Origin: Candidatus Thorarchaeota archaeon
GTDB lineage: Archaea; Asgardarchaeota; Thorarchaeia; Thorarchaeales; Thorarchaeaceae
Direction of reading: 5' to 3'
Assembly: GCA_046758445.1 (NCBI GenBank)
Contig: JBHIAE010000011.1
Location: 1 to 64,000, forward strand
DNA length: 64,000 nucleotides
In this document: positions 14,446-17,591 of the stretch, piece after piece
Layout: each line of letters begins with the position of its first letter
How positions within the stretch are numbered: position 1 is the first letter of the stretch
Program-made: the position numbers and the translations under genes
The notes under the pieces: generated by a model
What the model saw: only the letters and a program-made list of their open reading frames with translations
Databases searched by the model: none
Told to the model about the DNA's origin: nothing

Positions 14446-15249
14446 TTACTCCTTCTCGATCTCTTCAGGAGTAAGTTCTCGAGCTTCGACAGATTCCCAA
14501 GGAGTTATGGGCAGCTCGAGATTTGTCTGGCGGATTGCTTCTCCAACTGCAATCACAACTACGGCCAGAATAATCGAGGCCACGAGTCTCTCAACGGGAT
14601 AGACGAAGGTGATTGCCAGCCATATGTCGACAAGGCCCACCGGATCCCAGCCTAGAACGTACACGAAGTGATAAACGCTGACCGCATTACCCACGACATG
14701 ATCTGTGAGAAGCGCGATAAAGCTGAACAGCCATATGCCGAAGGACATCAATGCGATGTTTCTACCTTCCTCAAATGAAGTGGCGTCTTTGAGGATATCA
14801 GTCACTCTTGGAATGAGCAGCAAGATAATGATAACCAAGGTCACAAGATGGAGCCAGATAAACATGAATGCAGGAATTCCTATCGGGCTGGCAATGAATG
14901 CCAGAACTGCAACAAGAAACAGTACGAAGAGAAGACGTGGCTTTCCAGTTCTTAGGGCTCCTGCAGCGAAAGCTCCAGCTGTGGGTGCCAACGTCGGCAC
15001 TAGTGGTCCAAGGATTCCTCCTGGGTTGAAGACATTGACTCCAAGGAATGAACCTATGAACACAGAGATTGGCCCATAGAAGGGACCGAGAAGGAATCCC
15101 ACAATAGGTGCGGATACCATGCCCCAAGTGAGAAATCCCCCTCCCATTCCCAACACGGAATAGGGGATCATCGAGAGAACCAGATGGAACGCTGCAAAGA
15201 TGCCCACGAGAGCCCACGGATACGCTTTCGATTTGGTGAAACTTGGCAT
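14446..15249 (-). CDS. Integral membrane protein, ECF S-component-like
   Basis: Multi-TM protein with N-terminal GIFAAFHLVLSMIP and APIVGFLLGPFYGPISVFIGSFLG typical of S components. SD AGGAGG upstream. Confidence 0.65.
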   Translation of the reverse strand: MPSFTKSKAYPWALVGIFAAFHLVLSMIPYSVLGMGGGFLTWGMVSAPIVGFLLGPFYGPISVFIGSFLGVNVFNPGGILGPLVPTLAPTAGAFAAGALRTGKPRLLFVLFLVAVLAFIASPIGIPAFMFIWLHLVTLVIIILLLIPRVTDILKDATSFEEGRNIALMSFGIWLFSFIALLTDHVVGNAVSVYHFVYVLGWDPVGLVDIWLAITFVYPVERLVASIILAVVVIAVGEAIRQTNLELPITPWESVEARELTPEEIEKE

Positions 15250-15270
15250 GACAGGTCTCCTCCTATGAAG

Positions 15271-15310
15271 TGTAGTTTAGTAAACTACATAGGCAGTTGT
15301 GTACACTACA
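15271..15310. promoter_or_regulatory. Tandem palindromic operator
   Basis: Perfect TGTAGTTTA-G-TAAACTACA (15271-15289) plus a 14/19 copy GGCAGTTGTGTACACTACA (15292-15310), 21 bp period, between divergent genes. Confidence 0.7.
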
Positions 15311-15354
15311 CCGACGTACCAAACCGCTATTTGAATATGTTGGAGACCCCCCCG

Positions 15355-16686
15355 ATGGATAAACGAGAGCATCTATGGCCGTACGTCCTATTCCTGCCCG
15401 AGAGCTCTGAGCGAAGGCTCGACTTCATCAGAACCGTTCTGGCATCGAAGATCGCTCCCAGCGTTCTTTCTAGTTTCGACCAAGGAGGCAAGGTTCTTCA
15501 GCGCGACCTTGTCAAGCAACTCCCTCACTCCAATAAGAGTATTCTCGCCTACTTGAGAACTCTCAAGGAATTCGCTCTTGTGAAGACGGGATCAGAAGTG
15601 GAGGGAGGGAAGCGTGTTGTCTACCATGAATTGTCGAGGAGTGGCTGGAGCCTCGCTCGCTTCTTCTCTGAAGGTCTGCCGTCAGACCTCGGGGAACTTA
15701 CCGAGTATCTACTGGAAGACTACCTCACCAATCTTGTGTCCTTGTATCGAGATCTGGGACTAGACGAATCCTTGATTTTCGAAGTCTTCACACGCGCCCG
15801 AGCGAAGGAGATACTCCAAGGCTCGACCTCATACGACCGGCCTGAGTTTGTCCTTTTTGGCGCTTCAGCCTTCTTTACTGAGGTTGAATGTAGAAAGCTA
15901 CCTCCACCAGGCGGTGAGGTGGGATGCAAGGTTCCTGAACGATACTCTGGTGGACCAACAATCAGACTTGCCCTTGCACTTGCGGATCAGAAACACAAGG
16001 TTGCTTTCGTGTCTGCTGTGGGGAATGATCAAGACGGATGGAACGTAATCACTTCTCTCGTGAGTCAGAAAGTCGACGTATCACACTTCGTGGTCGAGGA
16101 TGACAAGCAGACCAACAAGACGATCTTGATTGGAGACGAGAAGGGAAAACGGACTCTCGTGGGAATTGGTGATCTCTCTGCATTATCGATTACTTCTCCC
16201 TCTCAAGTCCCATGGGAAACGCTGGCAGAGGCAAGAGTAGTATACCTTGGAGAAGTCTTCGTCGAGGTTGCAGTTTCAATTGCTGCGTATGCCAGAGCGC
16301 GCAATATCCCCATAGTCTACAGGTGTTCACCTCACTACTGGCGAAGGGGTATTGATGAGCTAGAGCCTATTCTGAAACAAGTCGACATCCTAGTTGCTTC
16401 AAGTAGAGAGTGGAAGGAGGCGAAGGGTGTGCTCGGTCCCAAACCTCTCTCCAAGTTAGCAGAGTCAACCAACGCAGCCATTGTGTTGAAGCACTCCCAG
16501 GATGCCTACAAAATCTATAAGAATGCCAACTCTAGACCAACTGAACTTGTTTCTGAATCCTATACTGATGATATCACTGGATGGTTGATGGCTGGCATCG
16601 TGCAGGCTATTGGACATCGGGAAGACACAGTGAAGGCAGTAGATAGAGGAATAGTGCTAGAGAATTCTATGCTCGCCGGTGGCTAG
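15355..16686 (+). CDS. wHTH + PfkB/ribokinase-like domain protein (probable transcription regulator)
   Basis: HTH: LQRDLVKQLPHSNKSILAYLRTLKEFALVK. PfkB N-signature YSGGPTIRLALALA..AVGNDQDG. The C-terminal DTxGAGD motif is missing. ATG 15355 follows GGAG; the track start 15184 overlaps the divergent gene. Confidence 0.8.
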   Translation: MDKREHLWPYVLFLPESSERRLDFIRTVLASKIAPSVLSSFDQGGKVLQRDLVKQLPHSNKSILAYLRTLKEFALVKTGSEVEGGKRVVYHELSRSGWSLARFFSEGLPSDLGELTEYLLEDYLTNLVSLYRDLGLDESLIFEVFTRARAKEILQGSTSYDRPEFVLFGASAFFTEVECRKLPPPGGEVGCKVPERYSGGPTIRLALALADQKHKVAFVSAVGNDQDGWNVITSLVSQKVDVSHFVVEDDKQTNKTILIGDEKGKRTLVGIGDLSALSITSPSQVPWETLAEARVVYLGEVFVEVAVSIAAYARARNIPIVYRCSPHYWRRGIDELEPILKQVDILVASSREWKEAKGVLGPKPLSKLAESTNAAIVLKHSQDAYKIYKNANSRPTELVSESYTDDITGWLMAGIVQAIGHREDTVKAVDRGIVLENSMLAGG

Positions 16687-17591
16687 CTGCTAGAAGAGGC
16701 GAGCACCCAGAAGAAGAGGCCTCCCAGGATCCATACGAATAGTCCCGCTCCGAGGACAATGCCAAGTGTCGCTCCCATTGAAGACGACCCGAGGTTGACG
16801 TGAACATTCGTGAAACTCTTGAAACCTCCTACGTACTTGGTTTCATAGCTGCAGTGGAACTCCTTGTCCGTGATACAACCACATATCTCACAGACAAATC
16901 TGTTCTGAAAGACGGCGCCAAATAGGCTATCCAGATTGGATCCGATAAATGCTGTAAGAACAGCCAGTGGCACAATAAAGATGAGTTGAGCCATGTTTGA
17001 AACCGGCACCGAGCCCGGAGCCAAAAGGGCAAAAGTGAGCGCTATTACTCCTATCCCCAAACCGGCGGCTGCAGCAGCAGCTTCTCCGAGAAGAGATACC
17101 GCACCTATTGTACCGCGAGGAACCTTCCTCCTCAGATTTGTAATCAACCTGGGCTTAGACTTGCTGAACACCCCTATTTCAGATGCTAATGTGTCGGCCG
17201 TGGTTGTTGCTACAGCTCCGATGAAGCCTCCGAACATCCAGAAGGGATCGATACCGAAACTGGGTGAAACATACATGCCGATGGAGAATATCATCGGGAT
17301 TACGCCACTGGCAATGACATTCTTGAACGCTCTCTTACCTTTGCCTTCTTGAGCTAGTCCTTGTTCAGCCTTCGCCCTATACTTGAACTTCGTTGCTGCT
17401 CCTGATGAAAGGAAGAAGAACAGAACAATCGCAAAGGCTGGAGGGCCTCCAGTATACCAAATAGTGAAGCCTACTACGAATGCGCTGACCATGCCCGATA
17501 TGTCAAGGAACCCAGCCTTGTAGGCAATTACACCTATGACTGTCATCACAAGTAGTCCAGAAACTACGGGGTGGGTCAACAGTTCTAGCAT
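16683..17591 (-). CDS. DUF92/TMEM19 family membrane protein
   Basis: ATTTADTLASEIG, PRLITNLRRKVPRGTIGAVSLLG, DSLFGAVFQ, FTNVHVN. Confidence 0.92.
   Translation of the reverse strand: MLELLTHPVVSGLLVMTVIGVIAYKAGFLDISGMVSAFVVGFTIWYTGGPPAFAIVLFFFLSSGAATKFKYRAKAEQGLAQEGKGKRAFKNVIASGVIPMIFSIGMYVSPSFGIDPFWMFGGFIGAVATTTADTLASEIGVFSKSKPRLITNLRRKVPRGTIGAVSLLGEAAAAAAGLGIGVIALTFALLAPGSVPVSNMAQLIFIVPLAVLTAFIGSNLDSLFGAVFQNRFVCEICGCITDKEFHCSYETKYVGGFKSFTNVHVNLGSSSMGATLGIVLGAGLFVWILGGLFFWVLASSSS

Follow-up and report, generated by a model that had tools for sequence, protein, structure and literature searches.

In a 64-kb window of Thorarchaeota DNA (the whole stretch analysed, 64,000 nucleotides from one contig), a regulator gene and a gene for an energy-coupling factor (ECF) S-component-type transporter are transcribed divergently. 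We consider it probable that the regulator is a local repressor of this transporter: its winged helix-turn-helix (wHTH) domain is predicted to bind a 36-bp operator in the spacer and so block the S-component gene, a dead PfkB/ribokinase-fold domain would act as the effector module, and the transported substrate would be related to pterin or tetrahydromethanopterin (H4MPT). The coordinates of the features discussed are collected in Table 1.

A conserved putative operator between the divergent genes

The spacer between the two genes measures 105 bp (15250-15354), as initially annotated, when the regulator is taken to start at ATG 15355. This start is the most likely one, since homologues are 441-443 amino acids (aa) long, a GGAG lies 8-10 nt upstream of it in every locus, and the ATG at 15337 is not conserved. 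A start at 15337 was rejected for the last reason (L020 carries an in-frame stop at this point, and in L022 the ATG is missing), and a start at 15184, where the listed open reading frame begins, was rejected since the GGAG and the start at 15355 suit all loci. On the other side of the spacer, the position of the transporter Shine-Dalgarno (SD) sequence indicates that the transporter mRNA leader extends at least that far.

The perfect 19-bp palindrome reported for the spacer by the initial annotation, TGTAGTTTAGTAAACTACA, is present and is the only perfect 9-1-9 palindrome in the window; 18 such palindromes occur in the 3.25-Mb genome, compared to ~12 expected. It forms part of a 36-bp block, TGTAnTTnAGTAAACTACATAGGYAGTTnTGTACA (15271-15306), with 27 invariant positions and ~52 bits of information, which is found in 17/17 loci. 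These are the Thorarchaeota loci that carry both genes; the transporter is divergent in all of them, and their regulators are 40-87% identical. The spacer outside the block varies among the same loci. The initial annotation had staked its reading on conservation of the motif upstream of orthologues, and all 17 loci keep it. Within site 1, the right arm and centre (AGTAAACTACA) are invariant in the 17 loci while changes at positions 5, 7 and 8 of the left arm are uncompensated, a pattern that favours recognition by a protein over an RNA hairpin.

The initial annotation also described a tandem copy of the palindrome 21 bp away, of which one part stands. The second copy, GGCAGTTGTGTACACTACA, is 14/19 identical to site 1, and the 21-bp offset is fixed in 17/17 loci, where 8-15 of the 19 positions match the site-1 consensus and TGTACA is invariant. 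It is mainly the left two thirds that are conserved, and the site is not palindromic in itself. Given its low self-symmetry and the non-conserved right arm, site 2 was rejected as a true palindromic copy and is retained as a conserved adjacent element.

A scan of the 3.25-Mb genome with a position weight matrix (PWM) of the 36-bp block returned a single site, that of this locus, with a score of 62.9 and nothing else at or above 12 bits, which argues that control is local and that there is no regulon beyond the locus. A looser search with TGTAGTT-N5-AACTACA (≤2 mismatches) gave 7 sites, compared to 47 for the reversed control. The wider regulon that the initial annotation proposed to define by a genome scan is therefore abandoned.

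In four Thorarchaeota genera there is no regulator between the transporter gene and the gene for a DUF92 membrane protein, and the block is missing from these loci as well, the best match (19-20/35) being equal to the shuffled null. The palindromic operator thus tracks the regulator (17/17 loci with it, 0/4 without it), as is characteristic of RbkR-type regulators. The four regulator-less loci (L044, L045, L046 and L048, from G017, G024, G034 and G027, respectively) cleanly lack the regulator gene, with the flanking gene order retained; G034 carries two tandem S-component copies.

Between the operator and the regulator gene, a promoter-like block is conserved in the alignment of the 17 loci. 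The distance from the centre of its TATA-like element to the TGTACA end of the operator is ~25 bp; with this spacing, the transporter transcription start would fall at the operator, the position expected of an archaeal repressor. The adjoining ATGTTGGAG may be read in either or both of two ways, as a TFB recognition element (BRE) in the minus direction and as the regulator's SD sequence (GGAG).

The regulator and its transporter partner

The initial annotation had the regulator as a kinase-fold domain fused to a wHTH, and structure prediction agrees. In the AlphaFold2 (AF2) model (pLDDT 83), the N-terminal 165 aa have the a1-b1-a2-a3-b2-b3 topology of a wHTH (helix 18-29, strand 46-48, helices 49-55 and 60-72, strands 76-83 and 86-93), followed by helices within residues 112-155. 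This domain is the best-conserved region of the protein, with H-S-N invariant in the recognition helix. Its sequence matches to wHTH families are below threshold (PadR-like 3elk, E 0.012); HTH_27 is matched by 6 of 11 family members (best E 3.8e-5), and the window protein itself has no match. The N-domain family is small, with only 88 clusters among 1.84 billion representatives. Its members come from Asgard lineages, Ignisphaera/Desulfurococcaceae, Bathyarchaeota and Culexarchaeia, and are either fused to PfkB (440-480 aa) or stand alone (155-185 aa).

The C-terminal domain matches Pfam PfkB (PF00294, E 8.6e-17), with the aligned part covering only profile positions 31-214 of 302; in the AF2 model the ribokinase fold is complete, with ~290 residues aligned to ribokinases (Foldseek E 1e-16, TMt ~0.7). 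The absence of the catalytic DTxGAGD motif, already noted in the initial annotation, holds throughout the Thorarchaeota clade, compared to 22/40 sampled family members that keep the motif, and it extends to further functional residues. In a profile alignment to the Leishmania ribokinase 5zwy, the family's d-i-T aligns with A-G-D of GAGD, placing Thr408 at the catalytic Asp, and the surrounding stretch is the least conserved in the Thorarchaeota family. The NxxE motif (Mg/phosphate binding) aligns with S349-x-x-E352, the Glu position being Ala in the family consensus and not conserved. FGASAFFT stands in place of the sugar-binding FGSxAxD and GGPTIR in place of GGSGAN, so that the sugar-binding Asp and Asn after GG are replaced while the GG dipeptide itself (G199 and G200) is invariant. 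From these motifs, the domain is predicted to be a catalytically dead kinase, with no kinase activity in the Thorarchaeota clade.

Elsewhere in the domain, the Thorarchaeota family has many invariant residues: DGW229, S278-x-x-SP-x-x-VPW287, Y297-x-GE-x-F-x-E304, YRCS325 and W353. The pseudo-kinase clade also has cysteines found in no other part of the family, namely C179 and C191, which are invariant (C-x11-C, in the lid hairpin; window 15889-15927), and C324 of the YRCS motif, which is nearly invariant (window 16324-16326). These three could form a redox or metal site.

Most fused relatives retain DTTGAGD, FGSxAxD and GGSGANVA. In a quick tree, the Thorarchaeota sequences form a single clade with a support of 100 on a long stem (1.94 changes per site), and GAGD has been lost at least four times within the family. 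Together, the intact kinase motif in most relatives and the tree make the ancestor look like a bifunctional kinase/regulator and the Thorarchaeota protein like a derived pseudo-kinase. The comparison drawn in the initial annotation to ThiR and RbkR, as enzymes reused as sensor domains, is apt for the same reason.

For the transporter, an attempt to name the family directly failed, as neither Pfam nor NCBIfam gave a match above threshold. The initial description of the gene as ECF S-component-like is nevertheless upheld by fold and by gene context. In a VIA structure comparison of the AF2 model (pLDDT 87), the top 22 chains are all ECF S-components with full-length coverage (Z 8.9-12.8), and the next fold is Lnt (Z 6); the top Foldseek matches are also S-components. 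The highest scores are for FolT (7nnt_C, 12.8), BioY (12.3), PanT (11.9), RibU (11.4) and ThiT (11.3), and CbiM/NikM are also in the top 22. FolT is first only within a tie with BioY, PanT and RibU. The six-helix S-component fold is shared with FolT, BioY, PanT, RibU and ThiT (group II) along the whole solved chains. The Thorarchaeota protein differs in having extra helices (267 aa, compared to ~165-200 aa for the solved S-components) and in a sequence similarity below Pfam thresholds.

The family profile has a sole match in the PDB, FolT 4z7f (E 0.074). PF12822 is matched weakly by 15 of 33 transporter family members (best E 0.0037), and the window protein matches neither PF12822 nor PF07155. 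Homologues of the transporter are found within S-EcfAA'-EcfT operons in L039 (Ignisphaera) and L040 (E 2e-18 and 9e-18 to the profile), where they are annotated with PF07155. The host genome encodes an EcfA-EcfA'-EcfT operon without an S gene on contig C1, and a separate CbiMQ-O system. The S-less operon, the fold and the homologues in EcfAA'T operons together fit a group II S-component.

Within one genus, the regulator-adjacent S-component is 64-92% identical to that of the window in some loci and just 37-43% identical in others (L008-L016 versus L007 and L013). The regulators of these loci are 57-87% identical and the operator is unchanged despite this split, which suggests either two transporter subtypes or fast divergence at a fixed locus.

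Distant relatives and a proposed methanopterin link

The regulator/S-component pair is conserved across archaeal phyla in several arrangements. In G055 the pair is divergent around a 17-bp palindrome, in L035 and L036 the transporter and then the regulator are co-directional, in G038 a stand-alone N-domain is divergent from the transporter, and in the Ignisphaera loci (L039, L040) an S-EcfAA'-EcfT operon is divergent from the regulator. The distant spacers contain TGTA..TACA palindromes, e.g. TGTGTAGCATGCTACACA, TGTAACATGTTACA and ATGTAATAGATTACAT, in agreement with the invariant HSNK recognition helix. When the Thorarchaeota operator core was searched for in these loci, no match exceeded the null; each lineage has its own motif, with only the TGTA/TACA arms in common.

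H4MPT is the common denominator of the gene contexts of the relatives (Table 1, last four rows), and from these contexts we infer that the effector ligand of the Thorarchaeota regulator is probably pterin- or H4MPT-related. In the operons of Jord- and Freyarchaeia, GAGD is intact in the regulator from Freyarchaeum and is replaced by R-T-K-D in the Jordarchaeales copies; a PurM-like (AIRS) gene is transcribed divergently from these operons.

Gene content in Thorarchaeota is consistent with such a link. None of the 36 genomes of the Thorarchaeota family yielded MptD (PF04038), and 1 of the 36 yielded beta-RFAP synthase (TIGR00144); in the host genome (92.7% complete), MptD, beta-RFAP synthase and FolB (PF02152) all went undetected. 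The S-component is present in 32 of the 36 genomes, which, combined with the missing MptD, FolB and beta-RFAP synthase, fits the uptake of a pterin or H4MPT precursor. This uptake is read from absences in metagenome-assembled genomes, and alternative enzymes may be possible. The host genome carries FTR, GCHY-1 and a DHPS-like/MptE-like pair; the latter two genes, for 404 aa (DHPS-like, Pterin_bind) and 241 aa (MptE-like), form an apparent operon at C20:11027-12960 (L043 1438-3371). The initial annotation predicted control of the uptake of a vitamin, nucleoside or sugar; the vitamin-type importer agrees with this, and the class can be provisionally narrowed to pterin- or methanopterin-related compounds.

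Table 1. Features of the window (window coordinates) and gene neighbourhoods of related loci (coordinates within each locus)
Feature	Position	Strand	Details
S-component-type gene, presumed regulated target	14446-15249	-	267 aa
SD sequence GGAGGAG of the transporter gene	15257-15263	-	GGAGG/GGTGG 6-10 nt before the start codon kept in aligned loci
Putative operator site 1	15271-15289		perfect 19-bp palindrome TGTAGTTTAGTAAACTACA, 9-1-9
Putative operator site 2 region	15290-15310		conserved TAGGCAGTTnTGTACA, 15290-15306; 14/19 copy, 15292-15310
Promoter-like block	15320-15345		AAACC, TATTTGAA (TATA-like, 15328-15335), ATGTTGGAG; AAACC-TATTTGAA-ATGTTGG resembles a TATA box with BRE-like flanks; conserved in 17-locus alignment
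Regulator gene	15355-16686	+	443 aa; listed open reading frame 15184-16686
wHTH N-domain, then two long helices	15355-15849	+	recognition helix HSNKSIL, GKRVV wing; AF2 secondary structure
PfkB/ribokinase-fold pseudo-kinase C-domain	15850-16686	+	Pfam, Foldseek, profile alignment
T-D-D-I-T at the GAGD anion hole and catalytic Asp	16564-16578	+	residues 404-408; profile alignment to ribokinase 5zwy
Jord-/Freyarchaeia MptD-regulator-MptE operons	L024 1279-3049; L032 2849-4616; L034 5591-8194		overlapping genes
Neighbours in L035, L036 and L040			FTR, MTD, Fwd, CODH/ACS, MptH-like Pterin_bind gene
Neighbours in G053 and G038			Mtd and Mer-like genes
Neighbour in Ignisphaera			thymidylate synthase

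Proposed mechanism, alternatives and known systems

We hypothesize that the 443-aa protein is a locus-specific transcription factor whose wHTH domain would bind the 36-bp block, probably as a dimer or as two dimers. The operator begins about one promoter length downstream of the TATA-like box and ends 7 nt before the ribosome-binding site of the transporter, and its occupation would block the recruitment or escape of RNA polymerase at the S-component gene. The dead PfkB fold, presumably inherited from a kinase/regulator ancestor, would serve both for dimerisation and for binding of the effector, so that the hold on the DNA is released or tightened as the amount of the transported compound, or of its product, changes. 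For transport, the S-component would team up with the separate EcfA-EcfA'-EcfT module that is encoded at another site in the genome. The metabolite-sensing repressor of the initial annotation is favoured by motif conservation and by the co-occurrence of regulator and operator, while the sensing of a ligand is a prediction.

Several points weigh against this repressor model. Deletion of the upstream DNA along with the gene would trivially explain why regulator-less genera lack the operator, and the promoter assigned to the transporter is one that we infer from the sequence. Because Thorarchaeota share the gene order over a wide region around the pair, adjacency within this group says little by itself and the argument rests on the distant lineages. 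In Thorarchaeota itself no H4MPT genes adjoin the pair. The Asp and Asn that bind ribose are lost too in the Thorarchaeota clade, and the pocket may bind something else or nothing. Finally, the operator lies upstream of the regulator's own conserved TATA-like box, so that activation or dual control is possible.

An activator using the same operator, or a regulator with two roles, repression of the transporter and activation or autoregulation of the regulator's own gene, is in our view unlikely. It would agree with the last point above, as archaeal factors such as TrmBL1 activate from positions upstream of the TATA box, and with the Ignisphaera spacers, where TGTAG-type sites on both sides of a central TATA-like element suggest autoregulation. 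However, the block lies between the TATA-like box and the SD of the transporter, the classical repressor position, and the clear TATA boxes of L035 and L036 are ~26 nt upstream of the TGTAG motif. It is likewise improbable that the PfkB-like domain is a mere dimerisation scaffold, the protein being a ligand-independent DNA binder or sensing redox state or metal through the Cys pair of the Thorarchaeota clade. The loss of the sugar-binding Asp/Asn, NxxE and GAGD, the low conservation of the former active-site region, the stand-alone N-domains without PfkB in other lineages and the restriction of the invariant C179 and C191 to this clade speak for this reading. The number of domain residues invariant across the Thorarchaeota family, however, exceeds the usual need of a scaffold, and the whole fold is kept despite the long stem branch.

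Two further explanations carry still less weight. The 36-bp block might be a basal promoter element or a structured RNA (riboswitch-like) in the 5' untranslated region of the transporter mRNA. It would probably lie in the transporter 5' leader if the TATA-like box is used, and 52 bits is large for a single dimer site. Nonetheless, this is very unlikely: a search against Rfam returned no family match, RNAalifold gave -6.4 kcal/mol with essentially no covariation and no consensus structure, the left-arm variation is not compensated against the invariant right arm, and the transporter gene occurs without the block in the regulator-less genera. The RNA element was rejected on the Rfam result and the lack of structure and covariation. 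It is extremely unlikely that the protein has remained enzymatic, as an atypical kinase whose wHTH is incidental; most relatives do look like active kinases by their motifs, but the catalytic Asp, anion hole, NxxE and sugar ligands are replaced in the window protein and in the whole Thorarchaeota clade.

Extending the repressor model to the whole family is more speculative. We tentatively raise the possibility that the wHTH-PfkB protein and its dedicated S-component form an archaeal salvage-and-control module for H4MPT or a pterin/arylamine precursor. The kinase of most lineages would trap the precursor by phosphorylation once it is imported and would signal its amount to the promoter, while in Thorarchaeota the kinase would have become a pure sensor in a cell dependent on uptake. 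If so, methanopterin/pterin homeostasis would gain its first assigned transcription factor along with its first transporter, and would do so in Asgard archaea.

The closest functional analogue is RbkR, judging by shared organisation. RbkR is an archaeal bifunctional riboflavin kinase/regulator with the ECF component RibU under its control, and its binding sites are palindromes of 16-20 bp, in some lineages two side by side (PMC5397151). The two systems share an N-terminal wHTH joined to a cofactor-pathway kinase, palindromic sites, an S-component target and lineage-specific motifs. They differ in the enzyme domain, which is a CTP-dependent RibK fold in RbkR and a PfkB/ribokinase fold here, and in the wHTH family, which is not the same (Pfam MarR_2 is matched by only 1 of 11 members, E 0.036). 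In addition, the Thorarchaeota protein is predicted to be catalytically dead, has a one-gene regulon and probably concerns a different cofactor.

Other known systems share single aspects. NadR, a bacterial fusion of an HTH with an NMN adenylyltransferase and a ribosylnicotinamide kinase, controls pnuC. It resembles the present case as a fusion of regulator and salvage kinase governing the importer of the same vitamin precursor, which is the likely logic of the active-kinase relatives, but its folds are unrelated and it is bacterial and enzymatically active. The ROK repressors NagC and Mlc also reuse a sugar-kinase fold in transcription control, but a different one. The plant PfkB pseudo-kinases FLN1 and FLN2 of the plastid RNA polymerase complex bring the sugar-kinase fold into transcription control as well, although they lack a DNA-binding domain and work as subunits associated with the polymerase; FLN2 (8xzv_S) is a direct profile match of the regulator family (E 2.4e-5). 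No account of a wHTH-PfkB regulator, of this family or of a methanopterin ECF transporter emerged from a literature search in which subscription journals were only partly covered. The enzyme-domain fold, the lost catalysis, the one-gene regulon and the probable cofactor set this case apart from RbkR and NadR.

Almost no Asgard transcription factors have a defined operator and target. The present locus provides a predicted site of 36 bp and 52 bits, a single target gene, and a naturally occurring range of relatives with an active kinase, a dead kinase or no kinase domain, making it a clean system for studying how an enzyme turns into a sensor. Should the methanopterin link be true, it would show archaeal import and regulation of a one-carbon cofactor or its precursor, and would bear on whether Thorarchaeota are auxotrophic for part of it, a question of weight for growing them in culture and for models of syntrophy.

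Two minor observations concern the regulator gene itself. Its stop codon overlaps by 4 bp (16683-16686) that of the convergent gene for the DUF92 membrane protein (16683-17591, minus strand), an overlap also present in L028 and L029. Within its coding region, a weak match to the sR14 C/D-box snoRNA at 15404-15430 (minus strand; 14 bits compared to a gathering threshold of 38, E 0.17) is most likely due to chance.

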